Source: Patescibacteria group bacterium
GTDB lineage: Bacteria; Patescibacteriota; Microgenomatia; Levybacterales; UBA12049
Direction: 5' to 3'
NCBI GenBank assembly: GCA_038063415.1
Contig: JBBTVD010000009.1
Span: forward strand, 81,430 to 141,727
Length of the DNA stretch: 60,298 nucleotides
Position numbers and translations under genes: made by a program. Shown piece by piece: positions 38-47,400 of this stretch (positions are counted from its first letter, which is position 1; each line of letters starts with the position of its first letter). The notes beneath the pieces were generated by a model that was not told where the DNA came from, searched no databases, and saw only the letters and a program-made list of their open reading frames with translations.

Positions 38-96
38 GTCATTCCTAGCTTGATCAGGAATCCAGAGCTAGATTCCGGCTCGGAGGCCGGAATGAC
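38..96. repeat. hairpin-pair palindromic repeat, copy A (GTCAT...ATGAC family)
   Basis: GTC + attcct/aggaat hairpin + spacer + attccggc/gccggaat hairpin + GAC, just upstream of pilT. Confidence 0.7.
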
Positions 97-105
97 AGTA
101 TAAAT

Positions 106-1176
106 ATGACAATTCAAGATTTATTATCATTAACCATCAAAAATAAAGCATCAGATTTGCATCTACTAGTGAACATGCAACCGACACTTCGTATAGACGG
201 TATATTACGATATCTCACCAACTATCCCGCACTAACAGGAGAGATGATCGAAACAATGGTGTTTTCACTCCTTACTCCAGAACAGAAGGAGTTGCTCCTC
301 ACCAACAAAGAGCTTGATTTTTCCTTTGGCTATGGAGCAACGAGCACAACGGCCGAAACAGGAAGATTCCGTGTGAATGCTTATTTTCAAAGAGGTTATT
401 TGTCGGCGGCATTTCGTTTCCTTGCGCCACGGGTACTCAGTATTGAAGAGCTTGGTCTTCCCAGGATTTGTCACGACTTTGCCAATATGCGTCAGGGATT
501 TGTCCTGGTAACAGGTCCAACAGGTCATGGGAAATCAAGTACGTTGGCAGCAATTCTTAATGAAATTAACACCACGCGTTCTTCGCATATTTTGACCATT
601 GAAGATCCGATCGAATTTGTGTACCCCAGAGCAAATAGTATAGTCTCCCAGCGGGAAATGGGATCTGATACGCATTCTTGGACGATGGCCTTGCGTTCGG
701 CGCTTCGTGAAGATCCAAATGTCGTCCTGATTGGAGAAATGCGTGATCCTGAGACAATGCAGGCTGCTATTACGCTTGCTGAAACAGGTCATTTGGTTTT
801 CTCTACGCTTCACACAAATTCTGCTGCACAGAGCATCGATCGTATTGTTGATTCTTTTCCTTCAGACCAGCGGCCACAGGTACGAATCCAACTCGCTGCA
901 ACCTTAAAAGGCATCATCTCTCAAAGATTGCTTCCCAAGATTGGTGGCGGTCGAGTTGTTGCAGCTGAAATCCTCTTGGGAACACCTGCTATTGCCAGTA
1001 ACATTCGGGAAGGAAAGTCACATCTAATTGATTCTGTTATCCAAACGTCCAAAGACATCGGTATGATTACCATTGATGAAGCTCTTTCATCACTCGTCAA
1101 AAATGGTATTATCGCTCTTGATGATGCCAAGAGTTTTGCCTTGCGGGAAGGAGAGCTTGATCGGCTGGTTGGATAA
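106..1176 (+). CDS. pilT: type IV pilus retraction ATPase PilT
   Basis: 356-aa ORF with Walker A GPTGHGKSST and PilT-like N-terminus (KASDLHL). A pilC-like gene follows after 2 nt. Confidence 0.85.
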   Translation: MTIQDLLSLTIKNKASDLHLLVNMQPTLRIDGILRYLTNYPALTGEMIETMVFSLLTPEQKELLLTNKELDFSFGYGATSTTAETGRFRVNAYFQRGYLSAAFRFLAPRVLSIEELGLPRICHDFANMRQGFVLVTGPTGHGKSSTLAAILNEINTTRSSHILTIEDPIEFVYPRANSIVSQREMGSDTHSWTMALRSALREDPNVVLIGEMRDPETMQAAITLAETGHLVFSTLHTNSAAQSIDRIVDSFPSDQRPQVRIQLAATLKGIISQRLLPKIGGGRVVAAEILLGTPAIASNIREGKSHLIDSVIQTSKDIGMITIDEALSSLVKNGIIALDDAKSFALREGELDRLVG

Positions 1177-1178
1177 CT

Positions 1179-2387
1179 ATGAAAATTTACTATCGTGCTG
1201 TTACTCAGGACGGGAAGACGATCCGTGGGCTTATTGATGCCAAAAACGAAAAAGAAGCAGCAGAATACCTTCGAAATCATCAATTTCTTCCGATTAAAAT
1301 AGTGAGAGAAAAACCTGGTGGTATGTTGCGTTATTTCCCTTTTTTGCAGCGTTCTTCTCTCTCTGATGTTGTCTTTTTCACCCGACAGCTAGCATCGATT
1401 ATGGGTTCGGGATTGACACTTATGCAATCGTTGCAAATTTTGCATAATCAACTACAAAATAAAAATGCAGCACTACAAGGCATCGTCCAAAACCTTATTA
1501 ATGATGTGCAAGATGGAAAACGATTTTCAGACGCTCTTGAAAGGTATCCAAAAATGTTCTCTCCTATTTATATTGCTCTTATTCGGACGGCAGAGACATC
1601 GGGGTTACTCGATAAATCACTCCTTCGTCTTGCCGAAAATCTTGAAAAACAGCAAGAACTTCGTCGTACTATCCAGGGAGCACTGCTCTATCCGTTGATC
1701 GTTATTCTTATGATGATTGTTGTCATTATCATTATGATGATTTTTGTTATCCCGCAATTAAGTTCTTTGTATACAGAAATGGCCGTTGATTTGCCTGCAT
1801 CGACAGCAGTTGTTATTGGTCTTTCTAATTTTGCCGTTACCTTTTGGCCCTTTATTCTTGGTGGAGGGCTCTTTTTGACCTATGTTACCCGTGAATGGTA
1901 CAAAAAGCCTGTGGGGAGAAAACTTATTGATACCTATCTTTTAAAGATGCCAATCTTTGGCAAACTGATGAGTGAGACAATGATGGCTGAATTTACTCGT
2001 ACCTTTAGTGTCCTGATTAGTTCTGGTTCACTCGTTGTTGATTCGCTCAATAAAAGTTCGGCGGTTGTTGGTAATGTTCTTTATCAAGAAGCAATTGTAA
2101 CGGTTGGGATGCGGGTCGAGAAAGGGATTAGCATTGGTGATGCTATGGAAGCCAGTCCCCTCTTCCCGCCAATGGTAGTTGAAATGGTCAAAATTGGCGA
2201 GCAAACAGGAAAGCTTGACGAATCGCTCATGCGCGCATCTGATTATTATGAAAGAGAAGTTTCACAGACAGTAAAAACACTTACGACACTGCTTGAGCCT
2301 GCTATCATGATTCTACTCGCTTTGGGTGTTGGCTTCTTGATCTTTGCAGTAATTACACCAATTTATAGCCTGATCTCCTCTTTTTAA
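1179..2387 (+). CDS. pilC: type IV pilus platform protein PilC (T2SS-F family)
   Basis: 402-aa ORF with duplicated T2SS-F-like halves and TM segments, adjacent to pilT. Confidence 0.85.
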   Translation: MKIYYRAVTQDGKTIRGLIDAKNEKEAAEYLRNHQFLPIKIVREKPGGMLRYFPFLQRSSLSDVVFFTRQLASIMGSGLTLMQSLQILHNQLQNKNAALQGIVQNLINDVQDGKRFSDALERYPKMFSPIYIALIRTAETSGLLDKSLLRLAENLEKQQELRRTIQGALLYPLIVILMMIVVIIIMMIFVIPQLSSLYTEMAVDLPASTAVVIGLSNFAVTFWPFILGGGLFLTYVTREWYKKPVGRKLIDTYLLKMPIFGKLMSETMMAEFTRTFSVLISSGSLVVDSLNKSSAVVGNVLYQEAIVTVGMRVEKGISIGDAMEASPLFPPMVVEMVKIGEQTGKLDESLMRASDYYEREVSQTVKTLTTLLEPAIMILLALGVGFLIFAVITPIYSLISSF

Positions 2388-2395
2388 GAAGAAAT

Positions 2396-3106
2396 TTACT
2401 CAATTACTGTACCCAAAAATTTCTTTCCGGTAAAGTAATTTTTGATATTACCAAAATCACTGCCATCCATAACGACGACTTTAATACCCAAATCCTCAGC
2501 CTTTTTGGCAGCTATTGGATCAAAAGGAGCATTCATCCCTGGTATCCATGTATCTCCAACTATTTTTCGGAAGTTTTTCCAGTCTATTTTATCAATTGGT
2601 TTTGCATCTGGGTATTGATTGGGGTCTTTGTCGTATACTTGTTTGATATTACTGAGGTTGATAACGGTGTCGATGTGGTAATCTTCTGAGAGGAGCATCG
2701 CGCAGTAGTCGGTCGACCATCCTGGTTTCCATCCAGCGGCTACGACGACAGGCTCTTTCACTTTACGGATGATTTCATAGTTTCTAATGATATGATCACT
2801 AGCAATATCTCGGAAGACAGTTCTGATAAGATGCGCATTAAGTCTGGTCGCATGAACGCCTATCCAGTCCAGATCATCATTGGTAAGTTCATGGCCAATA
2901 ACATCTTTTCCAGCATCGCGGTATTTTCGTGCAGTGACTCCCCCACCAGCTACCAAAAAAAACTGACGTTCATAATCTTGCGCCAGTTGGTTGCGAATAA
3001 AGAAATTGAGGTTATTGAGGAAAGGGATATTGAGGCCAGCTTTGGGAACAATAAGGGAGCCACCAACAGAAATGACGACTCTCTTGTGCTTGTTCTTAGT
3101 ACTCAT
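2396..3106 (-). CDS. pyrH: UMP kinase, archaeal-type (amino-acid kinase fold)
   Basis: 236 aa with ISVGGSLIVP N-terminus, VAGGGVTARKY, GWKPGWSTDYCA and YDKDP..DAKP, as in archaeal/CPR-type PyrH. Confidence 0.65.
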   Translation of the reverse strand: MSTKNKHKRVVISVGGSLIVPKAGLNIPFLNNLNFFIRNQLAQDYERQFFLVAGGGVTARKYRDAGKDVIGHELTNDDLDWIGVHATRLNAHLIRTVFRDIASDHIIRNYEIIRKVKEPVVVAAGWKPGWSTDYCAMLLSEDYHIDTVINLSNIKQVYDKDPNQYPDAKPIDKIDWKNFRKIVGDTWIPGMNAPFDPIAAKKAEDLGIKVVVMDGSDFGNIKNYFTGKKFLGTVIE

Positions 3107-3278
3107 ACAAAATAATATTACGTTGATATAAGTTCGTACGTTGCATAGTTAATCCTTTCGACACTATAGTATAGTTGTTGTATTTCGTCAACTATAAAAA
3201 AACACTTGCTTACCAAAAGACAAACGCTTAGTTACTATCTTTCTTTATAAGTGTATCTGTACCACTCTTTTAAATCAA

Positions 3279-3337: not shown

Positions 3338-3706
3338 CTACATTTTCTTTAGTGATAACTGTGATTTTTGGATGAGTTTTCGAAATAGGCAAACTAGTTC
3401 TTCTAACAGTGTGACCATTGAATAAGTGATACTCATATCATAGAGTGGTTTGCCCTTCAAAAGTTGTAATTCCGTAATTTGTATTACAATCCGTCTCGTT
3501 TCTTGAGAAAAATGTTTGGAAGCTGTGATAATCAGAATATTGCAGATCACGAGAAACTCCGTTACCTGTATCTTTTTTTCCAAGTGGAAAACCATTGCTT
3601 CTGCAAGTAGTGCTATCCTCTCAATTTCTGATAGATCATGTTTCTTAACTTCTTCAATGCTTTTCTCAAACCAACGAAGGCTCTTATCTTTTTGTCTGTT
3701 CTTCAT
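3338..3706 (-). CDS. hypothetical protein (start placed at internal MKNRQKDK)
   Basis: ORF only, no recognisable motif. A competing plus-strand ORF (3516..3872) overlaps it. Confidence 0.25.
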   Translation of the reverse strand: MKNRQKDKSLRWFEKSIEEVKKHDLSEIERIALLAEAMVFHLEKKIQVTEFLVICNILIITASKHFSQETRRIVIQITELQLLKGKPLYDMSITYSMVTLLEELVCLFRKLIQKSQLSLKKM

Positions 3707-3754
3707 CTGTACTCTAATCGTAAGAAATATTGGAGTAAATGAACACGACAAATG

Positions 3755-3771
3755 TGTCAAGAATTTTGACA
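3755..3771. promoter_or_regulatory. inverted repeat TGTCAA-N5-TTGACA
   Basis: tgtcaagaattttgaca, lying upstream of the minus-strand hypothetical ORF. Confidence 0.4.
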
Positions 3772-3932
3772 AAGAGCATGGTATTGTTTTTCTAAAGGAA
3801 GATCCTTCCGTAAATCAAATCAATGACGCTCTATCAAGATTACGTGAAAAAGGGAGTATTAAAAGAGCTTGAAAAGAAATAGTTATATTAAAGATAAGAT
3901 TATTAAGAAAAAAATCTAAGTTATATTTGCTA

Positions 3933-4280
3933 CTATAATGACAAAAGTAACTTTACTGCTTTGATTACTTCTTCTAGTTTATCTCTCTCAAGAGATCCAA
4001 CTTTTTTCATAAGCCGCTTTTGATCAATACTGCGGATAAAAATGGGCAATAATACAGATTGTTTTTCCAGGCCTTCTTTTTCTCCAATAGTCACCATTTC
4101 CGGGCCAATTGTATGGGGAACTTGAGAACTTATTGGGATAACAATCACTGAAAAACTTTTTTGATTGATGACATTCTCAGAGAAAACAAGTGCAGGTCTT
4201 TTTTTGTGAAGTTCACGATGTGTGCCAGGTTCAAGGTCAACAATCCAGATATCACCTCGCTCTGCTATTTCGTCGGCCAT
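3933..4280 (-). CDS. PemK/MazF-family endoribonuclease toxin
   Basis: 115 aa with GDIWIVDLEPGTHRELHKKRPALVFS, typical of MazF/PemK. Overlaps the upstream antitoxin ORF by 16 nt. Confidence 0.75.
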   Translation of the reverse strand: MADEIAERGDIWIVDLEPGTHRELHKKRPALVFSENVINQKSFSVIVIPISSQVPHTIGPEMVTIGEKEGLEKQSVLLPIFIRSIDQKRLMKKVGSLERDKLEEVIKAVKLLLSL

Positions 4281-4501
4281 TGGTTTATTTCAGTCTCCTT
4301 CCACTCTTTTGCAATAGTTTTATAAAAGTGCTCGTTTTCCTTCAGACTTTTTTTGAGTTGTTTTTTTATATCTCCTGCATTCTCTAACTTCTCAGATATT
4401 GCATTAACAATAAATTGATTCCTTTTTTTGGAAGGGATGGTCAATTTAAGCTGTTCAAAAATTTCTTGAGGTAGTTGTATATTGGTTTGTTGAACGTTCA
4501 T
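4265..4501 (-). CDS. ribbon-helix-helix (CopG/MazE-like) antitoxin
   Basis: 78 aa from MNVQQTNIQLPQEIFEQLK...KKRNQFIVNAISEKL, an RHH-like pattern. Start chosen because the TTGACA-16-TATAAT promoter ends 6 nt upstream. Confidence 0.5.
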   Translation of the reverse strand: MNVQQTNIQLPQEIFEQLKLTIPSKKRNQFIVNAISEKLENAGDIKKQLKKSLKENEHFYKTIAKEWKETEINQWPTK

Positions 4502-4507
4502 AAACTT

Positions 4508-4535: not shown

Positions 4536-4567
4536 TATTAGATTGAGTGATTTTTCATAACGCAATT

Positions 4568-4586: not shown

Positions 4587-4610
4587 CTGATCTGTTACAA
4601 TACCGACAAT

Positions 4611-19350: not shown

Positions 19351-20094
19351 ATGGAATATAAACGAGTTTTTTGGGGACAAAAAAGTTTGCGCTTTTGGTA
19401 TCTCCGCTACAAAGATTCACCTTTGTATGCAGGAGCAGTTTTTGGTGTTATTAGTACGGTTTCGCTCATTTTGCTTATCTTTCTTGTTATTCCACAGATC
19501 CAGAGTTGGTTTTCGCTTCGGGAACAAGTTGTCCAAATGGAACAAAAGATTGCGGTATTGAGGAACAATACAACCTATTTACAATCAGTAGATCGAGCAC
19601 AAGTACAGAAGCAATTGGATATTTCTCTTGCAGCATTACCTTGGGATAAACAAGTAGATAGCATTTTACAAGCAATTAATAATGCCTCGATTACTTCAGG
19701 AGTCGGTTTAGGTGATTTTGCTTTCCAAATTGGCAATGTAAGTACTCTCGCGGCCAGTGTCACTTCCGATCCTGAAACACGAGGACTTAACACGACACGG
19801 GTTAATATCAGTGTAACCGGGAGTCTTGCAAGAGTACAAAAATTCCTTGAGACACTACAAAAAAGCTTACCACTTTCAGAAGTAATTAGCGCGGAAGGAA
19901 CGAGTCAATCAACAAATATTCTTATGCAGTTTTATCAAAAGCCACTTCCCTCGCTCTCTTTTAAGCCAGATAAGCCGATCGTTCCTGTCTCAGCGCAAGA
20001 TACCGCGTTGCTTAATCAATTATCAGAATGGAAAGTGCCAATAGTACCAGATCAAGTTATCGAGTCTTCAAACGCAGCTATTCCGCTTTTTTGA
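19351..20094 (+). CDS. PilO-like bitopic pilus assembly protein
   Basis: 247 aa with a single TM, directly abutting the PilN-like gene. Confidence 0.4.
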   Translation: MEYKRVFWGQKSLRFWYLRYKDSPLYAGAVFGVISTVSLILLIFLVIPQIQSWFSLREQVVQMEQKIAVLRNNTTYLQSVDRAQVQKQLDISLAALPWDKQVDSILQAINNASITSGVGLGDFAFQIGNVSTLAASVTSDPETRGLNTTRVNISVTGSLARVQKFLETLQKSLPLSEVISAEGTSQSTNILMQFYQKPLPSLSFKPDKPIVPVSAQDTALLNQLSEWKVPIVPDQVIESSNAAIPLF

Positions 20095-20836
20095 GGAGGT
20101 CTGGACGGACTGTTTTCGTTATAAGACGTGATTGTTCTTTTTTCCAAGCGGCAATTTCTTTATGGTTGCCTCCGCGTAAAACTTCAGGTACTTCCATTCC
20201 GTTATACGCTGCAGGTTTGGTATAGTGAGGATATTCTAAATACGTTTCAGTTTCTTTTTCTCCGGACAGAGAGAAAGATTCATTATCCGTTGCTCCCTGC
20301 GGAAGTACTCCTGGGATAAGCCGAGTTACGGCATCAGTTATCAGCATGGTTGGGATTTCTCCACCAGTTAAGACAAAGTCTCCTATCGAAACCTCTTCAT
20401 CAATATATGCCCCAATTCGTGCATCAATGCCTTCATAATGCCCACAAATAAGAATCAAATGGTCTAAGCTCGCATATGCTTTTGCTGTTGGTTGTTCAAA
20501 AGGTGTTCCAGTTGCACTCATGAGGACTACCCTCGTCATTCTGGCTTGTCCAGAATCAGTGTTACTTAAGATTCTGGATGCGCTCGGTTCTCGCTTACCA
20601 GAATGACGCTGCTTTGCATACTCAATTGCCTGATGTACGACATCAACCTTAAGTACCATCCCAACTCCCCCGCCGTAGGGTGTATCATCGACCATTTTGT
20701 GTGAGCCTACACCGAAATCTCTTATATTTATCAATTCGATTTCTATTGCTCCTTTTTCTTGTGCGCGTTTCACGATCGAATGATCAAATGGTCCGACAAA
20801 CATTTCAGGAAAAAGTGTTAAGATACTTATTTTCAT
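20078..20836 (-). CDS. trmD: tRNA (guanine37-N1)-methyltransferase, carrying an internal repeat-derived segment
   Basis: LTLFPEMF, DDTPYGGG and CGHYEGIDARI. Residues HSGKREPSASRILSNTDSGQARMT are encoded by repeat copy B. Confidence 0.9.
   Translation of the reverse strand: MKISILTLFPEMFVGPFDHSIVKRAQEKGAIEIELINIRDFGVGSHKMVDDTPYGGGVGMVLKVDVVHQAIEYAKQRHSGKREPSASRILSNTDSGQARMTRVVLMSATGTPFEQPTAKAYASLDHLILICGHYEGIDARIGAYIDEEVSIGDFVLTGGEIPTMLITDAVTRLIPGVLPQGATDNESFSLSGEKETETYLEYPHYTKPAAYNGMEVPEVLRGGNHKEIAAWKKEQSRLITKTVRPDLLKKAE
20535..20607. repeat. hairpin-pair palindromic repeat, copy B (inside trmD)
   Basis: gtc-attctggCTTGTccagaat...attctggATGCGCTCGGTTCTCGCTTAccagaat-gac. Confidence 0.8.
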
Positions 20837-24037: not shown

Positions 24038-24127
24038 GTCATGCTGAACTCGTTTCAGCATCCCAAAAAAGATTCTGGACAAGCCAGAATGACGGCTTAC
24101 AAGATCCTGAAACAAGTTCAGGATGAC
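24038..24127. repeat. hairpin repeat, copy C (one full unit plus an extra hairpin) in the glnA leader
   Basis: gtc-atgctgaaCTCGtttcagcat...attctggACAAGccagaat-gac, then atcctgaAACAAGttcaggat-gac. The last ATG is the annotated glnA start. Confidence 0.75.
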
Positions 24128-25538: not shown

Positions 25539-25620
25539 GTCATCCTGGAGAGGCAACGACCTCGATAGGATCTCATCCTATAAAGATTCTATCGCACAAC
25601 AAGTTACGTTCCAGAATGAC
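25539..25620. repeat. degenerate hairpin repeat, copy D
   Basis: gtcatcctgg...ataggatCTCatcctat...ccagaatgac, starting 4 nt after the glnA stop. Confidence 0.55.
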
Positions 25621-27132: not shown

Positions 27133-27160
27133 TCTTATAGCCTTTGTTAGGCAAGGCTCC

Positions 27161-27223
27161 GTCTCCTGTCCAGAATCCGCCATATGATCCTGGGTGTGCT
27201 CGTACCTCGCTTACCAGGATGAC
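27161..27223. repeat. hairpin repeat, copy E (left arm degraded)
   Basis: ...tgtccagaat...atcctggGTGTGCTCGTACCTCGCTTAccaggat-gac, between convergent genes. Confidence 0.55.
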
Positions 27224-30212: not shown

Positions 30213-30270
30213 GTCATCCCGGACTTTATCCGGGATCTACTTCTTGGATTCCTGCCTTCGCAGGAATGAC
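30213..30270. repeat. hairpin-pair repeat, copy F
   Basis: gtc-atcccggACTTTATccgggat...attcctgCCTTCGcaggaat-gac, ending 4 nt from the tyrS stop. Confidence 0.8.
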
Positions 30271-34377: not shown

Positions 34378-34452
34378 GTCATCCTGGTAAGCGAACCCCG
34401 ATTAGCGCATCCAGGATCTGATTCTGGGAAAGTCGGTGCTTTCCAGAATGAC
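34378..34452. repeat. hairpin-pair repeat, copy G (inverted orientation)
   Basis: gtc-atcctggTAAGCGAACCCCGATTAGCGCATccaggat...attctggGAAAGTCGGTGCTTTccagaat-gac, starting 2 nt after the PBP stop. Confidence 0.8.
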
Positions 34453-35171: not shown

Positions 35172-37298
35172 TTATTCCTTCAATCGTGCATTGTATTTTT
35201 CATGCAGTATTTTAAGCATGTTTTTTCGTATCTCCCCTACTTCCTCATCTGTCAGATTCTTTTCATAGCTTTGATAAATAATATGAAAGGTTCGGGTATC
35301 CTGATATTTGTCCAAAAGCGTAACAGACGCAATCAGTGGATTTTGCTTTGTAATTGTTTCAATAATAGTTCCTGTCAGTACGTCAGATGGAGCAATTAGT
35401 GCAAGATCTTCCACAATCGGTGGGAATTTACTGGTCGGTTTATAGATTTTTTTCAATGTGGCATGCTCAAGTAATCGACGAAAGTCTAGTTCAAAGCTAA
35501 TAAGATTCGAGTTTTCGATAGTGATCGTTCCAACAGACGTCATTCTGGCAAGTGAAGCGCGTCCAGAATCGATTCTGGAGTCCTCACGTTGTTTGTCCCC
35601 AGAATGACGAAGAGAAATTTCCGCACCATCGTTAGTTGCTGTATAGACTGCTTCATTGATACCAAGCTCGCGGAAAAGCTGCTCTATAATTCCTTTTACT
35701 TCATAAAAAGAGACCTTATCTTTTTTGACCACGCCGGCAAGCGTAAGTTTTTCTTCCGGCAGCGCATGTGCTTTTTTGACGTAGACATTTGCGATTTCAA
35801 AAATATGGACGGTATCATATTTTTTATTTTCTTTTATTACTTTGAGCAAGCTTGGGGTAAGGGTTCTTCGCATCACGACAAATTCTTCAGAAAGTGGGTT
35901 TTCAATCGTAACCGCATCTTCAATCTTGCCGTCATACAGTTCTTTGGGAACCATTGGGTAGGTATAGACTTCGGTGAAGCCCCAGTATTTGAGCATATCT
36001 TTGACCCTATCTTCCCAGAAGAATTCATTCTTTCCATAGGCTGTTGGTGCTGCTTGTTCTACTGCTGGAAGCTTATCCGGGATGTTTTGATAGCCATAAA
36101 TACGGGCTATTTCTTCAATAACGTCTTCTGGAATGGTAATATCTTTTGCCCGAAAAGATGGAGGAGTAACGGTCAAAATGTTTTTTGTCATGCTGGCTTG
36201 TCCAGCATCTTTTTTAGATTCTGGACGCGTTCTTTTATCGCTTGCCAGAATGACGTGAGATGAAATTTTTGTCGCAAATCCCAGACTTTGCATAATATGT
36301 GCAGATTCATTCACCGTAACCGGTACTCCCATAACGGATGCAATTTGTTCCTCCGTTACTGAGACGGTTTGGATCTGAGGCTTGTTTGAATATGTATCAA
36401 TAATCTCTGAAATGATCTTTCCGTCAGCTACTTCTTCAAAAAGTTTGACACCATAGGCAAATGCATCGGTTGCAAGTTCTGGATCAACTCCCTTTTCGTT
36501 AAGTACTGCGGCTTCTGAACGAATTCCCAGACCCATAGAAGTCTTTCTAATTTGCTGTGCATCATTATTGTCAATAAAGAAAAGAATCCGTTTGGTTTCG
36601 TTGGTTACCACACTGTTTTCAAGTCCCATGATAGCAAGTAAATCAATGATTCTTCCCGAATCATCTACTGCGATAATATCTCCATCTCGGAGGGTATGTA
36701 TTTTCTTATCGAGGGTTTCTATTTTTTCTCCTTTTTTGGCTCCTCGTATCGTCAGGCTTTTGGTTGCAAGCCGATCGTAGTCAAAGACGTGTGTTGGATG
36801 ACCGATCACCCGCATGACATAATTGGTAACATCGATAAGGTTGCTGAGACTTCTGATATCCGTTGCTTCCAAACGGTTTTTAATTAGCTCAGGAGAAGGC
36901 TTCACCGTTACTTCCATTACCACTGCCATAACTCGGTTAGTTAGTTTTTCGTTGGTATGAATCGTTAGCTTCACGTTGTCATCCCCGACTCCGATCGGGG
37001 ATCCAGTTCTCTTCTGGATTCCTGCCTTCGCAGGAATGACAGATAATGCTGGTGGAGTAAAGGTTGCCGAGATACCATTTTGGTTGAGTACTGCGGCTGT
37101 CTCCCGTGCCAGACCAAGGATGGACATCAGATCAGGTCTATTGGTCGTAATTTCAATATCATAGACATAGTCTTCGTTATACTTCTCAAGGCGTTCGACC
37201 GAGACACTTGCGAGTGACAAAAGCTCCGCAATTTTTTGCGGTTTTGCGGTTGTTTTGACGTATTCTTTGAGCCAAGAGTCTAAAATTTTGATATTCAT
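35172..37298 (-). CDS. pheT: phenylalanyl-tRNA synthetase beta subunit, carrying three internal repeat-derived segments
   Basis: 708 aa with SWLKEYV N-terminus, TNRPDLMSILGLARE (B3/4) and a C-terminal anticodon-binding-like domain. Repeat copies H, I and J lie in frame. Confidence 0.9.
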   Translation of the reverse strand: MNIKILDSWLKEYVKTTAKPQKIAELLSLASVSVERLEKYNEDYVYDIEITTNRPDLMSILGLARETAAVLNQNGISATFTPPALSVIPAKAGIQKRTGSPIGVGDDNVKLTIHTNEKLTNRVMAVVMEVTVKPSPELIKNRLEATDIRSLSNLIDVTNYVMRVIGHPTHVFDYDRLATKSLTIRGAKKGEKIETLDKKIHTLRDGDIIAVDDSGRIIDLLAIMGLENSVVTNETKRILFFIDNNDAQQIRKTSMGLGIRSEAAVLNEKGVDPELATDAFAYGVKLFEEVADGKIISEIIDTYSNKPQIQTVSVTEEQIASVMGVPVTVNESAHIMQSLGFATKISSHVILASDKRTRPESKKDAGQASMTKNILTVTPPSFRAKDITIPEDVIEEIARIYGYQNIPDKLPAVEQAAPTAYGKNEFFWEDRVKDMLKYWGFTEVYTYPMVPKELYDGKIEDAVTIENPLSEEFVVMRRTLTPSLLKVIKENKKYDTVHIFEIANVYVKKAHALPEEKLTLAGVVKKDKVSFYEVKGIIEQLFRELGINEAVYTATNDGAEISLRHSGDKQREDSRIDSGRASLARMTSVGTITIENSNLISFELDFRRLLEHATLKKIYKPTSKFPPIVEDLALIAPSDVLTGTIIETITKQNPLIASVTLLDKYQDTRTFHIIYQSYEKNLTDEEVGEIRKNMLKILHEKYNARLKE
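35539..35607. repeat. hairpin-pair repeat, copy H (inside pheT)
   Basis: gtc-attctggCAAGTGAAGCGCGTccagaat-cg-attctgg...ccagaat-gac. Encodes RHSGDKQREDSRIDSGRASLARMT. Confidence 0.8.
36187..36254. repeat. hairpin-pair repeat, copy I (inside pheT)
   Basis: gtc-atgctggCTTGTccagcat...attctggACGCGTTCTTTTATCGCTTGccagaat-gac. Encodes VILASDKRTRPESKKDAGQASMT. Confidence 0.8.
36978..37040. repeat. hairpin-pair repeat, copy J (inside pheT)
   Basis: gtc-atccccgACTCCGATcggggat...attcctgCCTTCGcaggaat-gac. Encodes SVIPAKAGIQKRTGSPIGVGDD. Confidence 0.8.
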
Positions 37299-38812: not shown

Positions 38813-38876
38813 GTCATTCTGGCTTGTCCAGAATCAGATGATTAGATCCTGGATGCGTTTCACTTACCAGGATGAC
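38813..38876. repeat. hairpin-pair repeat, copy K (best-preserved unit)
   Basis: gtc-attctggCTTGTccagaat...atcctggATGCGTTTCACTTAccaggat-gac, between the aminotransferase stop and the pheS start. Confidence 0.85.
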
Positions 38877-40056: not shown

Positions 40057-41427
40057 TTATATCCTCTTTACCAGGAGAAAACTAGTATAATTCTCCGTGA
40101 GATCTTGCAAGTTTTCTTCAATTTTTTGTAAATCATAGATATCCGCAAGAATTTTACTCCCCAACGTTGCGATATGTTTGGGTAACTTCCCTTCGGCAAT
40201 ATGTTTGGCGACAAGGGCTGTATCAATAAGCTCTCCTTCCCCTGACGTTAATTCTAAATGAGGATATTTTTTCGCAAGGGTTTCTTTGCATTGTGCTAGT
40301 ACCTGTGGATGGCACATGATCGTTGTAACTTCCTCAAAAGGGATATCTTTTCGAGTCATTAACGTATGGGAGATAATGATCGCAAATTCCTCGATAATTG
40401 CAAATTTATGCCTGGCCATTGCCTCAACACTTTCCATAACGATGCCTCCTGTAGCATTGTGCATTGCAAATACTCCTTGGTCGATATTCCCTTCATGAAG
40501 TTCCCGTAGGACATTTTCTGTTGTGTAAAGATAGGTAATTTCTGCATTGACGATGTTATGTTGCTTAAGATAGTCTTCGATAGCTTCTTCATTAAAACTT
40601 CCTATGCCACCTTGGATACCTATGGTGAGTTTAGCTTTGTCGATACGTTCTGGAATCAGTTTATTAAAGAGTCCATCATAAATCTCTCCAAACTTTACCC
40701 GCATTTGCTTGGTGTAGGGATTATAATGCTGCATATCGGTAAAGAGTTCCCAGGTGTCATTGCATACCTGTTCTTTGACTTGCAGTAATCGTTTGGTACC
40801 CAGTGAGTCAATTGGTGTTTCTTTTAGCTTATACTCTCCGAGCATTCTTCCAATAAAGTGTGTCAGCCCAAGTGAATTTGCGGAAAGATGATCATGTTCT
40901 TCTGCTGACATTTCGATTACTTGGAGCTGTTTTGCCACAAAGTATTCTTTCCAAAAAGCATAGGTTCTCTCATTTGTACGGAATTGCTCGATGATGATCG
41001 GAAGCTCCTCAAATCCATCTTTGCTACTATCTGGACCAAACATTGGATGGGTGAGGAGTGCCTGTGTTTTTTTATTTTTTAGTATGTGAGTAAACACTTT
41101 TTTGGGATGGCACTTTACCGTAAGGACATCAATCAGTACATGATGATCAGTAATGTATGTCTCATGTTCTTTGAGGACTTCTTCGAAAGCAGACATAGGG
41201 ACAGCATAAAAGATAGTATCATTTTGATAGGCAGCGGTGAGACTATCGGTGAAGTTTATTTTAGATATGTCATGCTGAACTTGTTTCAGCATCTTTTCTT
41301 TTGATGCTTGAGTTCCCGAAACAAGTTCGGGATGACGAGTATAAATGGTAATCTCAAAATCATCTTGCAACAGACGAACCAACGTCTGTCCAAATCTTCC
41401 ATAACCGATGATTGTTATCTTTTTCAT
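40057..41427 (-). CDS. fused prephenate dehydrogenase (TyrA-like N-terminus) / prephenate dehydratase (PheA-like C-terminus), with an internal repeat-derived segment
   Basis: Rossmann KITIIGYGRFGQT. C-terminal half LTIGIQGGIGSFNEEA ... ENYTSFLLV (TRF-like). Repeat copy L encodes RHPELVSGTQASKEKMLKQVQHD. Confidence 0.7.
   Translation of the reverse strand: MKKITIIGYGRFGQTLVRLLQDDFEITIYTRHPELVSGTQASKEKMLKQVQHDISKINFTDSLTAAYQNDTIFYAVPMSAFEEVLKEHETYITDHHVLIDVLTVKCHPKKVFTHILKNKKTQALLTHPMFGPDSSKDGFEELPIIIEQFRTNERTYAFWKEYFVAKQLQVIEMSAEEHDHLSANSLGLTHFIGRMLGEYKLKETPIDSLGTKRLLQVKEQVCNDTWELFTDMQHYNPYTKQMRVKFGEIYDGLFNKLIPERIDKAKLTIGIQGGIGSFNEEAIEDYLKQHNIVNAEITYLYTTENVLRELHEGNIDQGVFAMHNATGGIVMESVEAMARHKFAIIEEFAIIISHTLMTRKDIPFEEVTTIMCHPQVLAQCKETLAKKYPHLELTSGEGELIDTALVAKHIAEGKLPKHIATLGSKILADIYDLQKIEENLQDLTENYTSFLLVKRI
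41269..41336. repeat. hairpin-pair repeat, copy L (inside the tyrA-pheA fusion)
   Basis: gtc-atgctgaACTTGTttcagcat...tcccgaaACAAGttcggga-tgac. Confidence 0.8.
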
Positions 41428-41723: not shown

Positions 41724-41807
41724 GTCATTCTGGCTTGTCCACTCCGATTTAATCGGAGTCCAGAATCTATAATAAGATCCTGGATGCGCTTCGCTTACCA
41801 GGATGAC
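41724..41807. repeat. hairpin-pair repeat, copy M, with a nested extra hairpin
   Basis: As copy K, but the loop of hairpin 1 contains actccgaTTTAAtcggagt. Confidence 0.8.
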
Positions 41808-41814
41808 GTATACG

Positions 41815-43671: not shown

Positions 43672-43847
43672 GTCATCCTGACCGAAGTGGAAGGATCTCT
43701 TTTCTGTCATTCCCGCGAAGGCGGGAATCTAATTATATTGATCCCCGGGTCAAGCCCGAGGATGACAGTTCTGTTTATGAGATTCTTCGACTACACGTTC
43801 TCCCGATTAAATCGAGATTCCTTCCGCTCAGAATGACATGGAACTTT
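43672..43847. repeat. composite cluster of about three hairpin-repeat units, copy N
   Basis: gtcatcctgaccgaagtggaaggat; gtc-attcccgcGAAGgcgggaat...atccccgggTCAAGcccgaggat-gac; ...ctcccgattaaatcgag...cagaatgac. Confidence 0.75.
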
Positions 43848-43853: not shown

Positions 43854-43877
43854 AAAAAAACCTCCCTTGTTGGGAGG
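43854..43877 (-). terminator. intrinsic terminator of the thrS-infC-rpmI-rplT operon
   Basis: Minus strand CCUCCCAACAAGGGAGG followed by 7 U. Confidence 0.6.
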
Positions 43878-43995
43878 CGTCGTGTGGTTTTACCCGTGCT
43901 GGTGAGTTCTTAGCTCAACAACGACTCCTCCCCGGAGGGAGTAAAGTAAAACCAGAAATAGTTGTTTGCCAATTGCTTCATGTATAAATATCTTA

Positions 43996-44551: not shown

Positions 44552-45113
44552 GTTTTTTACCTTTCTCAACCGATAGGAGAGAAACCATTTGTTTTCCTTC
44601 AAGTCGTGGTTCTCGATCTACCTTTGAGATATCACTCAAACTTTCAATAACCTTTTGAATTACTTGCTTTCCAAATTCCGAGCGAGTAATTTGTCTGCCT
44701 CGAAACTTGACTACCAAACGTAATTTATCTCCGTCTTCAAGAAATTCCCGTCCTCGTCTGATCATTACCTGAAGGTCATTATCAGACATAAAGGGCCCCA
44801 GACGTACTTCTTTTGTTTCGGAAACTTTTGCCTTTCGTTTCTCTTCTCGCTTCTTCTTCTGCTGTTGATAGAGAAACTTCTTAAAATCAATAATTTTGGC
44901 TACAGGAGGTTTGGCCAGTGGAGCAATTTCCACCAAATCAAGACCTTGTTCTTCAGCTAGCTTTAGGGCTTCACTCCGCGTGAGCACTCCTACTTGCTTA
45001 CCTTCATTATCAAGTATTCGCAGTTCCCCCGCAAAAATGCGTTGATTAATGCGATATCTTTTGTCCTGTTGATCTCGATTGAATCGAGACTTTTTGTTAC
45101 CTTTTCTTATCAA
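44526..45113 (-). CDS. infC: translation initiation factor IF-3
   Basis: INQRIFAGELRILDNEGKQVGVL. Non-ATG start (TTG at 45113, followed by ATA), as is usual for infC. Confidence 0.85.
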   Translation of the reverse strand: MIRKGNKKSRFNRDQQDKRYRINQRIFAGELRILDNEGKQVGVLTRSEALKLAEEQGLDLVEIAPLAKPPVAKIIDFKKFLYQQQKKKREEKRKAKVSETKEVRLGPFMSDNDLQVMIRRGREFLEDGDKLRLVVKFRGRQITRSEFGKQVIQKVIESLSDISKVDREPRLEGKQMVSLLSVEKGKKHEESKTEN

Positions 45114-46902
45114 TGTCGTTTCGTAATTGCGTGAGAAACGTAGTGGCAGCGAGTCTTCCTAGATCCTCTCCATTTCTCTTACGCACAGAAATAACCTCAT
45201 CGGCAATTTCTTTGTCCCCTATTATACCCATAAAAGGTACTTTTTGTAAAGTAGCGTCTCGTATCTTTGCCTGAAGACGTTCTGAACGGACATCTGCTTC
45301 TGCTCTGATACCTACGGCTTGCAGCTCTTTGGCTATTTTTTCTGCATACTCGTTGTGTCGATCGGCAATAGGAAGGAGGCTTACTTGTACTGGTGCAAGC
45401 CACAGAGGGAAGGCTCCTGCTGTGTGTTCGATGTACACAGAAAGAAATCGTTCTATCGATCCCATGAGTGCAAAGTGAATCATAACAGGTGTTTGTTCTT
45501 TGCCGTCTTGATCAATATAGGTAAGTCCAAAACGTTTTGGCTGGACAAAATCAAGCTGTGGTGTTGCCACTTGCCATTCGCGCCCCAATGCATCAATTGC
45601 CATAAAGTCTATTTTGGGTCCATAGAAAGCAGCCTCACCTTCTGCAGTGTAATAATCGAGCTTATTTTTCTTTGCGACCTTAAGGATAATTTCCTGCGCC
45701 TTTTCCCATAGTGCATCATCGCCAATATATTTTTCTGGAGTTTGTGGGTCTCGGAATGAAAGCCTTGCCCTTAGTTTCATCCCAATGGTTTTATAGAAGG
45801 TTTGCACAACTTCAATAAGTTCATCATAAATAGCATCAATTTGCTCAGGAGTACAAAAAGCATGACTATCATCTTGTGTAAGCGATCTTACTCGTGCAAG
45901 ACCCAAAAGCTCGCCTGCTTTTTCATCACGGTAATCAGTTGTTGTTTCCATATACTTGATAGGGAGATCACGATAGCTTCGTATGCGTGAGGCATAAATT
46001 TGCTGGTGATGTGGGCAGTTCATTGGCTTCATCACCATTTCATCAGTTGTCTCCTGGCTTTTTACCAGGAAAAGTTCTTTGCCAAACTTATCCCAATGTC
46101 CAGAAACCTTATACAAGTCATTTTTGGTAATATGGGGTGTCCATACTTTAGAAAAGCCCTTTTCTTCTCGTAGCCCTTGCGAGTAATCATTTAAAAGTTC
46201 CCGTAAGAGTGTCCCTTTGGGAGTAAAAAGTGGCAAACCCTTCCCAACAAGATCTGAAAGCACAAACAAATCAAGGTCTTTGCCCAATTTTCGGTGATCT
46301 CGCTTCTTGGCTTCTTCAAGCATTACTAGATGCTCTTCCAGTTCTTTTTTGCTTGCAAATGCTGTGCCATAGACACGAGTGAGCATCTTATTCTTTTCGT
46401 CACCTCTCCAGTAGGCTCCGGCAATAGAGAGTAGTTTAAATGCTCCAATGTCTTTCTTTGGTTCTTCACTATGTCCTCCACGACAAAGATCTTCAAAGTC
46501 CCCTACTTTATACAAAGTAATTTTTTCACCTTTCTTGATGATTCCTTCGATAAGTTCGAGTTTATACGGATTATCTTTATAGATGTCCTTTGCTTCTTTT
46601 TCGGTTACTTCCCGATGAGAAAATGCCCCCCATGTTTTGAGCAGTTCTGCCATTTTTTGTTCTATTCTTGCAAAAGCATTAGCATTTAACGTATCTATTT
46701 TTTCACTAACAGGTCGATTATCGTTATTTTTTTGTTTAAAAACTTTTTGAACTTCTTCTTTATTAAATTCAAAGTCATAATAAAAGCCATGTTCGATTGC
46801 TGGACCAATCGTAAGTTTTGTGTTAGGAAGTAATTCCAATATTGCTGCCGCAAGTAAATGGGCAGTAGAGTGTCTCATTGCTTGTAGGTGTTGGTCATTC
46901 AT
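45097..46902 (-). CDS. thrS: threonyl-tRNA synthetase (no N-terminal TGS domain)
   Basis: 601 aa. Begins at the editing-domain motif RHSTAHLLAAA. Class II core YRDEKAGELLGLARVRSLTQDDSH. Confidence 0.9.
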   Translation of the reverse strand: MNDQHLQAMRHSTAHLLAAAILELLPNTKLTIGPAIEHGFYYDFEFNKEEVQKVFKQKNNDNRPVSEKIDTLNANAFARIEQKMAELLKTWGAFSHREVTEKEAKDIYKDNPYKLELIEGIIKKGEKITLYKVGDFEDLCRGGHSEEPKKDIGAFKLLSIAGAYWRGDEKNKMLTRVYGTAFASKKELEEHLVMLEEAKKRDHRKLGKDLDLFVLSDLVGKGLPLFTPKGTLLRELLNDYSQGLREEKGFSKVWTPHITKNDLYKVSGHWDKFGKELFLVKSQETTDEMVMKPMNCPHHQQIYASRIRSYRDLPIKYMETTTDYRDEKAGELLGLARVRSLTQDDSHAFCTPEQIDAIYDELIEVVQTFYKTIGMKLRARLSFRDPQTPEKYIGDDALWEKAQEIILKVAKKNKLDYYTAEGEAAFYGPKIDFMAIDALGREWQVATPQLDFVQPKRFGLTYIDQDGKEQTPVMIHFALMGSIERFLSVYIEHTAGAFPLWLAPVQVSLLPIADRHNEYAEKIAKELQAVGIRAEADVRSERLQAKIRDATLQKVPFMGIIGDKEIADEVISVRKRNGEDLGRLAATTFLTQLRNDIDKKR

Positions 46903-46922
46903 GGGCTTTTACTCATTATAAC

Positions 46923-46947
46923 AAAAAACCCCGACTTAATCGGGGTT
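46923..46947 (-). terminator. intrinsic terminator-like hairpin 20 nt upstream of the thrS ATG (attenuator candidate)
   Basis: Minus strand AACCCCGA-UUAAG-UCGGGGUU followed by UUUUG. Confidence 0.5.
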
Positions 46948-47023
46948 GGTTTTCAGCACAACGAACCCCTCGTTAGAGGATGGTGGTAGTTGTGATGGTA
47001 ATTCCTTGCGACATATTGAGACA

Positions 47024-47052
47024 ATATTACTCTGTTGTGGGAGGGGTGTCAA
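47024..47052 (-). promoter_or_regulatory. sigma70-like promoter, TTGACA-17 nt-TAATAT (minus strand)
   Basis: Read directly. Would start a transcript of roughly 95 nt ending at the 46923-46947 hairpin. Confidence 0.5.
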
Positions 47053-47070
47053 GTAGTAAGCAGACACCTG

Positions 47071-47355
47071 TTATTTTCGAAGATCTTGATTATTGTTGAG
47101 GACAAACGTGGTAATATCAGAGACAAATGATCCAATAATCGGTACAAGATTTGCTTGATCTGCAATGATGCCTAGAATGGTAAAAAGGACAGAAATACCA
47201 ACGGTTGCTCCAAACCCCCAGGCAATACCACCAATAAAATTGTTAAAAAGGATCTCTTTTATGCTGATGCGGGTAATAGTCCGCTCAAAAGGTTGTTCTG
47301 GCACCACTTTTATATCCATTGGAGTCAGTATAACAAACGCAGATTTTTTTGTCAT
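47071..47355 (-). CDS. small membrane protein, hypothetical (DUF5665-like)
   Basis: 94 aa with two hydrophobic helices (GGIAWGFGATVGISVLFTILGII). Confidence 0.45.
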   Translation of the reverse strand: MTKKSAFVILTPMDIKVVPEQPFERTITRISIKEILFNNFIGGIAWGFGATVGISVLFTILGIIADQANLVPIIGSFVSDITTFVLNNNQDLRK

Positions 47356-47400
47356 TCGTAGAAGAAAGGTATAGAGATCCTGAAATAAATTCAGGATGAC
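47351..47400. repeat. partial hairpin repeat, copy O
   Basis: gtcattcg...atcctgaAATAAAttcaggat-gac. Its left GTCAT contains the start codon of the 47071..47355 ORF. Confidence 0.55.

Follow-up and report, generated by a model that had tools for sequence, protein, structure and literature searches.

Short palindromic repeats recur in a 60,298-nt stretch of DNA (hereafter, the window), and the question raised is to what family they belong and what could have spread them in their host, which is a Levybacteria-like CPR bacterium. The original prediction described 15 loci with one shared hairpin-pair architecture, likened them to elements of the MITE, REP or RPE type, and suggested that a RAYT/IS200-like or other trans-acting enzyme be sought.

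The hairpin repeats of the window were confirmed as genuine and far above chance. It is apparent that every locus originally named exists, as do the inverted-repeat outer ends (GTCATYCTGG and CCAGRATGAC), the interchangeable stem types and the recurrent loops (CTTGT; TAAGCG..CGCAT) described at that time. Fifteen elements, or approximately 30 hairpin modules, were found within positions 38–47400, along with one stub, the decayed copy predicted at 56624 (Table 1). Their spread is uneven, with 14 of the 15 situated at 20.5–47.4 kb of the window. The motif GTCATYCTGG, with at most one mismatch, has 28 matches, compared with 6.1±2.3 in shuffled sequences, none of 100 shuffles reaching 28. A scan for oriented modules, defined as GTC followed by an AT-stem of at least 6 bp and a loop of 3–45 nt, returned 31 sites in the window, compared with 4.1±2.1 in Markov shuffles. 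Twenty-six of these sites fall within reported elements. A separate scan brought up a further element, P, which may already have been among copies A–O of the original prediction. Enrichment in the two shuffle comparisons is approximately 5- to 7-fold. A covariance model, as originally proposed, matched the known elements and nothing further. The similarity extends beyond generic palindromes: shared termini and modules exceed the shuffles, and the same modules and pair architecture were observed at more than 117 loci in other genomes. An exact 23-mer is shared by Patescibacteria, Nitrospirota, Gammaproteobacteria, Ignavibacteria and others, which is counted among the signs of mobility.

Table 1. 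Repeat elements of the window and the genes that contain them. Positions are those of the window.
Feature	Position	Strand	Description
Element A	38..96		Modules 38–62 forward, 71–96 reverse; intergenic, 10 nt upstream of PilB-like ATPase ORF 106–1176
trmD	20078..20836	-	Pfam tRNA_m1G_MT, E 1.6e-50, match in two stretches; PDB alignment
Element B	20535..20607		CTTGT-loop module plus TAAGCG..CGCAT-loop module, in frame in trmD
Element C	24038..24127		Modules 24038–24062 forward, 24071–24093 reverse, 24103–24127 reverse; glnA leader, extends to first ATG of ORF
Element D	25539..25620		Decayed pair, canonical GTCATCCTGG / CCAGAATGAC ends; begins 3 nt past glnA stop
Element E	27160..27223		Left module truncated, right module intact (27186–27223); between convergent genes, ORF 26305–27132 and recG
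Element F	30213..30270		Pair, stems ATCCCGGA and ATTCCTGC; end 3 nt from tyrS stop codon
Element G	34378..34452		Pair forming entire spacer between convergent PBP1 gene (stop 34376) and ORF 34459–34908
pheT	35172..37298	-	Host of elements H, I and P
Element H	35539..35608		Pair, in frame in pheT, encodes HSGDKQREDSRIDSGRASLARMT, aa ~565–587
Element I	36187..36254		Pair, in frame in pheT, aa ~348–372
Element P	36978..37040		Pair, in frame in pheT, encodes VIPAKAGIQKRTGSPIGVGDD, aa ~87–107
Element J	38813..38876		Pair in spacer between pheS and aminotransferase gene
tyrA/pheA ORF	40057..41427	-	Prephenate dehydrogenase / prephenate dehydratase fusion; Pfam PDH_N and PDT; alignment with homologue from locus L122
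Element K	41269..41334		Pair, right module imperfect; N-terminal region of TyrA/PheA ORF; encodes HPELVSGTQASKEKMLKQVQHD
Element L	41724..41807		Pair, left loop with extra CTCCGATTTAATCGGAG hairpin; intergenic, between stop at 41815 and likely chorismate mutase start near 41711
Composite M	43672..43837		Outer pair M1/M4 (43672–43699, ~43782–43837), decayed; inner pair M2/M3 (43706–43766) nested in M1/M4 spacer
Element N	47350..47400		Decayed left end (GTCATTCG...), intact right module 47376–47400; 7 nt from stop of ORF 47408–47989
Stub	56624..56634		GTCAGAATGAC

The hairpin pair had been taken as the repeated unit. The basic unit is instead one oriented module of the NTS/Ssn-related-motif (SRM) hairpin type, composed of Y-GTC, a stem-loop whose stem begins and ends in AT, and a final C; an element consists of two such modules, inverted relative to each other with their GTC ends outward. 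The GTC-AT..AT-C frame was observed in all 26 intact window modules, each directly followed by C, and C or T precedes GTC in 25 of them. Stems are 7–9 bp long and start with AT. Stem variants in intact modules are fully compensated, but possession of a stem was itself the basis on which modules were chosen, which makes the covariation count partly circular. As single-stranded DNA, the elements fold far more strongly than shuffled controls, with z values of -2.9 to -7.5. Related loci were fetched by the 23-nt module pattern alone and, together with the window, contain 101 outward-facing, 2 inward-facing and 12 tandem arrangements of adjacent modules. Pair length has a median of 68 nt (range 55–127; 101 pairs), and the window elements span 51–176 nt. 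Flanking duplications, for which a tabulation had been proposed, did not appear: a flanking direct repeat of at least 2 nt was found in 0 of the 101 pairs from the window and fetched loci. The composite predicted at 24038–24127 was found as described, but that predicted at 43672–43847 ends at 43837 and is a pair nested within a pair, an insertion that is a sign of mobility. The stub is a possible deletion footprint joining both termini; its sequence has 3 copies in the 911 kb searched, compared with approximately 0.4 expected.

The presence of elements inside real coding genes had been overlooked originally. Five of the 15 lie in frame within genes: pheT contains three, and trmD and the tyrA/pheA fusion one each. 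Element B, identical in a second assembly, encodes residues ~73–97 of TrmD; in the PDB alignment, the solved structures of this enzyme lack them. PheT is 708 aa long, compared with ~650 aa in most homologues, and, when compared with PDB 2rhs_B, element I forms a clean insert of 25 aa. The pheT inserts are modelled, with low confidence, as coil between strands. At the three pheT loops, intact elements are present or absent according to lineage, and their module classes and lengths differ, a further sign of mobility. Ten further genes with in-frame copies were observed in other CPR loci; the hosts include DNA ligase, GMP synthase, the CCA-adding enzyme, CysRS, MurB, Ddl, PilD, FemAB and ArgRS. 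The peptides quoted in the original prediction were translated correctly, but they are not simply products of junk ORFs, as VIPAKAGIQ occurs in PheT and MLKQVQHD in TyrA/PheA. Several repeat-derived peptides are translated parts of essential proteins in the host genome.

The statement that no transposase is present holds within the window, according to a Pfam analysis of 72 ORFs that include nearly all non-nested ORFs of at least 100 aa. A partner of a different kind was found in related genomes. SsnA is a 94-aa GIY-YIG nuclease that cuts Neisseria NTS and SRM hairpins as single-stranded DNA (PMC11893778). The NTS sequence is CGTCATTCCCGCGMAVGCGGGAATCYRG; the 3 nt upstream are a mapped determinant of its cleavage, and the C after the palindrome is one of its binding (PMC11893778). 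The anatomy of the window modules agrees with this sequence and with the mapped cleavage and binding determinants. Six small GIY-YIG ORFs were present among the module-fetched loci, and ORFs of the Ssn type in related Patescibacteria are 91–99 aa long; Pfam identified the GIY-YIG domain (PF01541) in two (E 1.8e-10 and 5.4e-12). All five complete ssn ORFs (at loci L079, from Levyibacteriota, L075, L102, twice, and L047) are directly flanked by modules on both sides, GTC outward. In three of the five, the terminal ATGAC supplies the TGA stop codon; in a fourth, that of L079, the frame continues through the right module. The L079 protein is 46% identical to the gonococcal 94-aa SsnA ORF over 92 of 95 aa (E 1e-24); that ORF has Y6, Y17 and E64 and is located among NTS copies. 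The CPR proteins beside modules fit the Ssn nuclease family, taken (cd10448-like) as single-domain GIY-YIG proteins of ~90–100 aa with SsnA homology over at least 75% of their length at E < 1e-10. In all, 1794 homologues were found; the top ones, 64–80% identical, have names from Levy-, Davies-, Curtiss-, Blackburn- and Parcubacteria. An ssn gene was not found in the 60-kb window (tblastn and HMM), nor was a CPR-type Ssn found in the 44 Nitrospirota loci carrying the same module. The partner suggested by these data is not RAYT/IS200-like: in related genomes, the modules flank a ~95-aa GIY-YIG Ssn homologous to Neisseria SsnA.

Taken as a whole, these observations make it likely that the repeats are a CPR dialect of SRMs, and that the pairs are ssn-less derivatives of a module–ssn–module unit that spread without target duplications. 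The module would be an oriented hairpin that folds in single-stranded DNA, and a single-domain GIY-YIG nuclease of ~95 aa, by analogy with Neisseria SsnA, would bind the hairpin and nick that strand a few bases to its 5′ side, the 3′ C being involved in binding and the 5′ GTC in cutting. The cognate nuclease is presumably encoded elsewhere in the host genome. Since the outward-GTC arrangement is the one that brackets ssn in related Patescibacteria, the pairs would be MITE-like derivatives of that unit from which ssn is missing. Their targets would have been short spacers between genes, other copies of the elements, and permissive loops on the surface of essential proteins, the copies in genes simply being translated as 21–25 extra residues. 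The most likely copying route, on a speculative view, is nick-induced recombination or repair (homing-like copying or gene conversion), because a hydrolytic GIY-YIG nuclease cannot by itself rejoin DNA; copying might occur during replication or following uptake of single-stranded DNA. A bolder proposal, which we put forward tentatively and consider rather less than even in likelihood, is that module–ssn–module is an autonomous mobile element of a kind so far unrecognised in bacteria, and that the pairs are its MITEs. If so, a ~95-aa GIY-YIG single-strand nuclease alone would drive an element that makes no target duplication and crosses phyla. In CPR bacteria, the Ssn system would be a principal and still active origin of protein-length variation. 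It would settle repeatedly in the same permissive loops within essential enzymes, and copies would stay palindromic through continuing conversion from other copies.

Alternatively, the elements could be structural signals that serve the host as transcription terminators, mRNA stabilisers or regulatory hairpins, owe their retention to that function and are unrelated to any nuclease; we regard this as improbable, although an effect on transcripts could exist side by side with the main explanation. Many copies do lie just past stop codons or between convergent genes, and hairpins are intact at the same pheT loops across lineages in which PheT is only ~55–63% identical. Yet one third of the elements are situated within coding genes, in which termination would be lethal. 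A T-rich inner spacer gives three modules a terminator-like score, but they are on the wrong strand relative to the neighbouring genes, and a separate canonical terminator follows rplT, beside composite M. The orientation-specific GTC/C frame, moreover, corresponds to what the nuclease reads and not to a requirement of terminators.

Mobilisation as REP/BIME or REPIN sequences by a RAYT, an IS200/IS605-like Y1 transposase, is very improbable. It would account for short palindromic inverted pairs, situated mostly in intergenic spacers and devoid of target duplications, but the conserved 5′ motif is GTCAT rather than the REP-typical GTAG, a Y1_Tnp domain was detected by Pfam in no window ORF, and the gene bracketed by modules encodes a GIY-YIG nuclease in five of five complete cases. 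The stems of the two modules of a pair often differ, and each module therefore folds separately and not as one REPIN hairpin.

Hardly any weight is given to classical MITEs, which derive from a DDE-transposase IS by internal deletion and are moved in trans by cut-and-paste. The elements do have inverted repeats at their termini, are small, occur in many copies, one of them nested, and have no coding capacity but a full-length relative (module–ssn–module). That relative, however, encodes only a 95-aa GIY-YIG nuclease; a DDE transposase was not found in the window, and the lack of target-site duplications is likewise contrary to this explanation. Finally, palindromes of independent origin, arising by chance or from composition, which could supply only the ~4–5 background matches of the module scan, are virtually excluded, having been refuted by the enrichment over shuffles, the identical 23-mers, the shared loops and the recurrence at loci of other genomes.

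The assignment to MITE/REP/RPE-type elements was thus partly correct: the family is dispersed and non-autonomous, its termini are inverted and its stems interchangeable and compensated, but neither a classical MITE nor a RAYT partner was observed. In comparison with known systems, the elements are like REP/BIME in their inverted hairpin pairs and like RPE in their in-frame coding insertions. Coxiella QMITE1 and QMITE2 are 300–400 bp and 150–190 bp long, with terminal direct repeats and a GTAG REP core (PMC5896051). Like the present elements, they are small, palindromic and non-autonomous, and in a reduced genome they overlap ORFs; identity with them was rejected, as lengths, direct-repeat ends, GTAG core and organism all differ.

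With REP/BIME, the elements share a hairpin with a short oriented 5′ motif, closely spaced inverted pairs, the absence of target duplication and a single-copy enzyme gene flanked by repeats. REPs have a GTAG 5′ motif and an HUH/Y1 transposase and are extragenic by definition, whereas the present elements have 5′ GTCA and a GIY-YIG nuclease, and some copies are intragenic. Studies of REP/BIME/REPIN sequences with RAYT transposases include those of Nunvar (2010), Ton-Hoang (2012) and Bertels & Rainey (2011). Those studies are cited in PMC11893778.

The likeness to RPE, compared by description, lies in an in-frame insertion that is tolerated as an extra peptide. Rickettsia palindromic elements, said to have been described by Ogata et al. 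in 2000, are short palindromic selfish DNAs of ~100–150 bp, inserted in frame in essential genes of a small-genome bacterium and producing extra surface peptides. They are not known from genera other than Rickettsia, and no enzyme is known to be associated with them. They are longer than the window elements, and the host here is a CPR bacterium. RPE are mentioned in PMC1779305, and, as Rickettsia is listed among the SRM-rich genera (PMC11893778), RPE and SRMs may overlap.

NTS/SRM sequences and the SsnA-family single-stranded DNA nucleases, including the Neisseria dRS3 repeat, were described by Chenal et al. (Nat Commun 2025; PMC11893778). Common to them and to the present elements are an oriented hairpin with 5′ (C/T)GTCAT, a stem starting with ATTC or ATCC, a C past the stem, hundreds of dispersed copies, and a small single-domain GIY-YIG gene with flanking motifs, the catalytic Tyr/Tyr/Glu being kept in the CPR protein. 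The published SRM pattern, HGTCWYN(0-2)YYVSBRHN(0-5)WNVSBRGN(0-2)RNCYNB (PMC11893778), is matched by only one of the 26 modules, 36977–37006, the left module of element P; the dominant ATTCTGG stem is, therefore, assigned to a dialect of SRM and is a predicted Ssn target. The dominant window stem differs in being 7 bp long (ATTCTGG/ATCCTGG), with loops that are often long and structured, and Patescibacteria and Nitrospirota hosts are absent from the main text of PMC11893778. In-frame coding copies make up approximately 30% here, as against the 2% reported for N. meningitidis (PMC11893778). CPR copies are mainly tight, outward-facing pairs. In those CPR units that contain ssn, the modules directly adjoin its ORF or extend into it; at the gonococcal ssnA locus, by contrast, the closest NTS copies point inward.

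The loci were read directly, and the architecture claimed in the original prediction, two hairpins between inverted GTC...GAC ends, was present at every one named there. It is apparent that these repeats exceed chance expectation. With up to one mismatch allowed, the terminal decamer GTCATYCTGG was found 28 times in the window, as compared with 6.1 ± 2.3 times in shuffles, and a scan for modules (GTC, a stem beginning AT and 6 bp or longer, a loop of 3–45 nt and the closing stem) returned 31 sites, as compared with 4.1 ± 2.1 in Markov shuffles. Twenty-six of the 31 sites fall in elements (inverted module pairs); C lies directly 3′ of all 26, and C or T lies 5′ of 25. A perfect-stem scan of the window recovered one extra element. 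A covariance model, trained on the 26 modules and applied to the whole window, recovered the decayed modules M1 and M4 (in element M), D1 (in D) and K2 (in K), and no further or decayed copies outside the known elements. In total, the window contains 15 elements, approximately 30 modules and one 11-nt stub, with 14 of the 15 elements situated between 20.5 and 47.4 kb. The sole match in an Rfam scan at the gathering threshold was a tRNA-Val.

The predicted pairs are real, but the basic unit is the single module and not the pair. A module is an oriented hairpin of 23–45 nt (e.g. CGTC ATTCTGG CTTGT CCAGAAT C), and a pair consists of two inverted modules with their GTC ends outside. Among neighbouring modules no more than 80 nt apart, in the window and all fetched loci of other genomes, 101 pairs were outward-facing, 2 inward-facing and 12 tandem; the median spacer between paired modules was 16 nt. 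Direct repeats of 2 nt or more flank none of the 101 pairs, i.e. there are no target-site duplications. The bases flanking the pairs are Y...R, and the lengths of all pairs showed no bias toward multiples of three. Several loop classes recur (CTTGT; TAAGCG..CGCAT; GGGGA..GACTCC; and a class with an additional CTCCGATTTAATCGGAG hairpin). Composites also occur: element C has three modules, and in element M one pair is nested in the spacer of another. Stem changes are always compensated, with T-A, C-G and G-C pairs at stem position 3 in 12, 9 and 3 cases, respectively. Double-change cells numbered 27 versus 6.8 in shuffles; this comparison is in part circular, given that possession of a stem was the criterion by which modules were selected. 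Folding of the elements as single-stranded DNA is much stronger than that of shuffles (z −2.9 to −7.5), and elements with two differing stems fold as two separate hairpins.

The stub is an 11-mer, GTCAGAATGAC, that fuses both element termini. It was also observed at position 7537 of locus L048 and 3253 of locus L090, giving a count of 3 versus approximately 0.4 expected in the 911 kb searched. Such a sequence might be left behind when an element is deleted between CA microhomologies. A second widespread dialect was observed as well, with ATTGC...GCAAT stems in the same GTC...C frame (L026, L077, L113 and other loci) and peptides such as ...IASS and ...LAMT.

The exact 23-mer GTCATYCTGGCTTGTCCAGRATC was found in more than 117 stretches, as a minimum, among GTDB representative genomes. 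Its hosts, as given by the titles and labels of MAG records, include many Patescibacteria (Levy-, Shapiro-, Davies-, Gottesman-, Roizman-, Curtiss-, Peri-, Gracili- and Saccharibacteria, Berkelbacteria and Paceibacterota), many Nitrospirota/Thermodesulfovibrionia, uncultured Gammaproteobacteria, and Ignavibacteriaceae, Bacteroidetes, Desantisbacteria, Nitrospinota and LCP-89. In almost every stretch, it serves as the left-hand member of a pair facing outward; the partner module in Nitrospirota is ATTCCCGACAAGCGGGAATGAC.

Site-specific Ssn nucleases were first described in 2025 (Chenal et al. 2025, PMC11893778). As reported there, SsnA of Neisseria is a 94-aa single-domain GIY-YIG nuclease that cuts the Neisseria Transformation Sequence (NTS), CGTCATTCCCGCGMAVGCGGGAATCYRG, a hairpin repeat containing dRS3, solely as single-stranded DNA and on one strand only. 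Cleavage is controlled by three bases 5′ of the palindrome and binding by the 3′ C. The same study found ssn genes of several phyla flanked by 'Ssn-related motifs' (SRMs), reported the repeats to be nearly always extragenic, and left open whether ssn and its repeats are a mobile element.

Six small GIY-YIG ORFs were found in loci fetched purely by module sequence (two with a GIY-YIG match in Pfam). Each of the five complete ORFs has a long-loop module on one side and a CTTGT module, inverted, on the other, both with GTC outside. In three of these units the terminal ATGAC supplies the ssn stop codon, TGA, and in a fourth, L079, a Levyibacteriota locus, the frame runs through the right module. 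The L079 protein, encoded at 4176-4460 of that locus, matches a 94-aa gonococcal ORF over its full length (46% identity, E 1e-24); that ORF has the catalytic residues Y6, Y17 and E64 named in PMC11893778 and lies amid NTS copies. In the gammaproteobacterial locus L077, the ssn gene is flanked by the ATTGC...GCAAT dialect. Homologues of the CPR Ssn are many in CPR bacteria. The best 120 show 64–80% identity, which exceeds that of PheT within one lineage, and the named ones among them come from several CPR lineages. Most lie on contigs that are very short, which is to be expected of multi-copy mobile DNA. No solved structure or NCBIfam model of the CPR Ssn was found. Ssn was absent from 50,697 phage records, and only three module matches were found in 2.9 million viral contigs. 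The hairpin pairs have the same ends as the ssn units, which suggests that they represent the two ends of such a unit minus the gene.

The genes of the window are those of a small CPR genome. Named homologues of its PheT derive from Candidatus Levyibacteriota and other Patescibacteria MAGs, with two from MAGs labelled Methylomirabilota and Candidatus Sulfotelmatobacter, and the closest non-self match has 63% identity. Pfam scans of the window ORFs bore out the original statement that no transposase is present, and a RAYT was likewise absent from them. A GIY-YIG/Ssn gene was also absent from the window by regular expression, tblastn, HMM and Pfam searches. Most elements occupy short spacers, often a few bases from a stop codon; element L is intergenic and lies shortly before the point where chorismate mutase probably starts. 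Coxiella QMITEs, suggested by the peptide motifs, were rejected on size and structure, the host being a CPR bacterium. A role as terminators was rejected as well, as just three modules are terminator-like, all on the wrong strand; the canonical terminator beside element M shows that genuine terminators in the window differ from the hairpin elements. The three-hairpin element C fills most of the glnA leader, beside a gene for an ANTAR regulator. Known ANTAR targets have hexaloops, whereas the loops of element C are pentaloops (5 nt); no link is apparent, and the proximity may be coincidence. Other features of the window are listed below. Aromatic biosynthetic genes of the kind found here are unusual in CPR bacteria; the prephenate dehydrogenase/prephenate dehydratase fusion is kept in another Levybacteria-like contig (L122, 975-2306).

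Features of the window. Coordinates are those of the whole stretch.
Feature	Position	Observation
Type IV pilus/competence-like gene set, complete	106-2387 and 12918-20094	PilB-like ATPase, PilC, prepilin peptidase PilD, 5–6 pilin/pseudopilin genes with N-methylation motifs, PilM, PilO-like, PilX-like
MazF/PemK region	3338-6908	Toxin gene (3933-4280, minus strand) adjoins 765-aa NB-ARC/STAND NTPase (4611-6908); possible defence island
Low-G+C stretch	8000-10400	29% G+C vs ~40% elsewhere, GC skew positive; EamA transporter, lysyl-phosphatidylglycerol-synthase C-terminal-like ORF, ORF without Pfam match; possibly foreign DNA
GAF-ANTAR RNA-binding regulator and glnA leader with element C	23192-24140	Regulator directly upstream of glnA
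Element B		In trmD; residues ~73–97 without counterpart in solved TrmD structures
Elements H and I		In pheT; with the next element, three inserts of 21–25 aa
Extra element	36978-37040	In pheT
Aromatic amino-acid cluster	38890-42780	Aminotransferase, fused prephenate dehydrogenase/prephenate dehydratase ORF, chorismate mutase, weak DAHP-synthase-like ORF
Element K		In the TyrA/PheA fusion
Composite element M	43672-43837	Inner pair at 43706-43766
Canonical intrinsic terminator	43854-43879 (minus strand)	CCTCCCAACAAGGGAGG then T7; downstream of infC-rpmI-rplT operon
ThrRS	45097-46902	Class II core domain spans 215 residues vs 179-position profile
Stub	56624-56634	11-mer
Likely restriction-modification pair	57176-58857	C-5 cytosine DNA methyltransferase (Pfam E 2e-99) overlaps downstream ORF with weak BsaWI-like endonuclease match

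Five elements (B, H, I, K and the extra element) lie in frame within genes. The PheT of the window has 708 aa versus approximately 650 aa in most homologues, and alignment with PDB 2rhs_B shows one of its inserts as a clean insertion of 25 aa. In an AlphaFold model of moderate quality (mean pLDDT 69.8), all three PheT inserts are coil between strands, with pLDDT below 50. A second public assembly carries the trmD region, insert included, at 100% identity, and two of the PheT inserts are also present in a truncated PheT from another assembly. The length of the ThrRS core domain suggests another insertion, of ~36 aa, now unrecognisable as an element.

To survey coding copies elsewhere, modules sampled from 8-kb blocks were scored as embedded if they lay in a long open frame with at least 60 codons on both sides, with Pfam confirmation in ten cases only. 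Embedded modules made up 38 of 117 in Patescibacteria (32 of ~107 without L119–L122, the loci fetched for their pheT inserts), 5 of 112 in Nitrospirota, 5 of 33 in Gammaproteobacteria and 2 of 36 in others. Ten of the Patescibacteria ORFs are true housekeeping genes, encoding ATP-dependent DNA ligase, GMP synthase, CCA-adding enzyme, CysRS, MurB, Ddl, prepilin peptidase, FemAB (two) and ArgRS. The elements have not evolved to be stop-free: 33 of 90 frames are open, as compared with 34.5 ± 3.9 in random window segments, so that the coding copies are those that by chance are open and in frame, survivors of selection. In 10 of 12 cases (B, I, L027, L036, L050, L057, L075, L088, L090 and L096; exceptions L073 and L089), translation runs through the long-loop module before the inverted CTTGT module, giving peptides that end in ...GQARMT or ...SWTSQDD. 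This is the polarity of the ssn unit, and stop codons fail to account for the bias.

In other Levybacteria-like lineages, the three pheT loops hold intact elements with canonical ends in some cases and are empty in others. The elements of different lineages belong to different module classes and differ in length, and those at site 1 are displaced by a few codons; at sites 2 and 3, all filled lineages read through the element in the same frame. These data fit an old insertion, the palindromes of which were kept or renewed, and also fit repeated insertion into permissive loops.

The proposed mechanism is as follows. A CPR Ssn, encoded elsewhere in the host genome, would bind and nick the hairpins in single-stranded DNA, and the pairs would derive from ssn units by gene loss. 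Their spread may, more speculatively, proceed by nick-induced recombination or repair, a route proposed because a hydrolytic GIY-YIG nuclease cannot rejoin DNA. By analogy with Neisseria, for which such a role has been shown, the system could possibly limit how far incoming single-stranded DNA recombines. The presence of a full type IV pilus set in the window may be relevant, since Ssn acts on such DNA in Neisseria; no hairpin elements are present inside the 7-kb pilus cluster.

Several observations bear on the mobility of ssn: the tight, IS-like unit with its stop codon within the terminal repeat; the many nuclease-less pairs with the same ends, their nesting and their presence or absence at orthologous sites; and the occurrence of the same 23-mer across unrelated phyla. 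Elements within aminoacyl-tRNA synthetases, TrmD, ligase and cell-wall enzymes affect gene calling, protein-length comparisons and homology models in CPR bacteria. The elements also account for a large class of 'junk' peptides in databases (…AGMT, …QARMT, VIPAKAGIQ, MLKQVQHD), and the new stem dialects may correspond to new specificities of site-specific single-stranded DNA nucleases. The genomes of CPR bacteria are approximately 1 Mb in size.

No account of these elements in CPR bacteria turned up in literature searches; one paper records that GIY-YIG genes have passed from Patescibacteria into other bacteria (PMC12455944). The closest known system is NTS/SRM-Ssn, the frame of which is exactly common to the window modules. 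There are clear differences: the published SRM search pattern fits only 1 of the 26 window modules, the hosts are CPR bacteria, unmentioned in the main text of PMC11893778, the copies are mostly tight pairs, and approximately 30% of them are coding, in contrast to the 2% reported for N. meningitidis. The CPR ssn unit is also more compact than the gonococcal locus, in which the nearest NTS copies face inward. REP/BIME elements share the pair architecture but differ in enzyme family, and the Rickettsia palindromic elements resemble those described here in their coding insertions.
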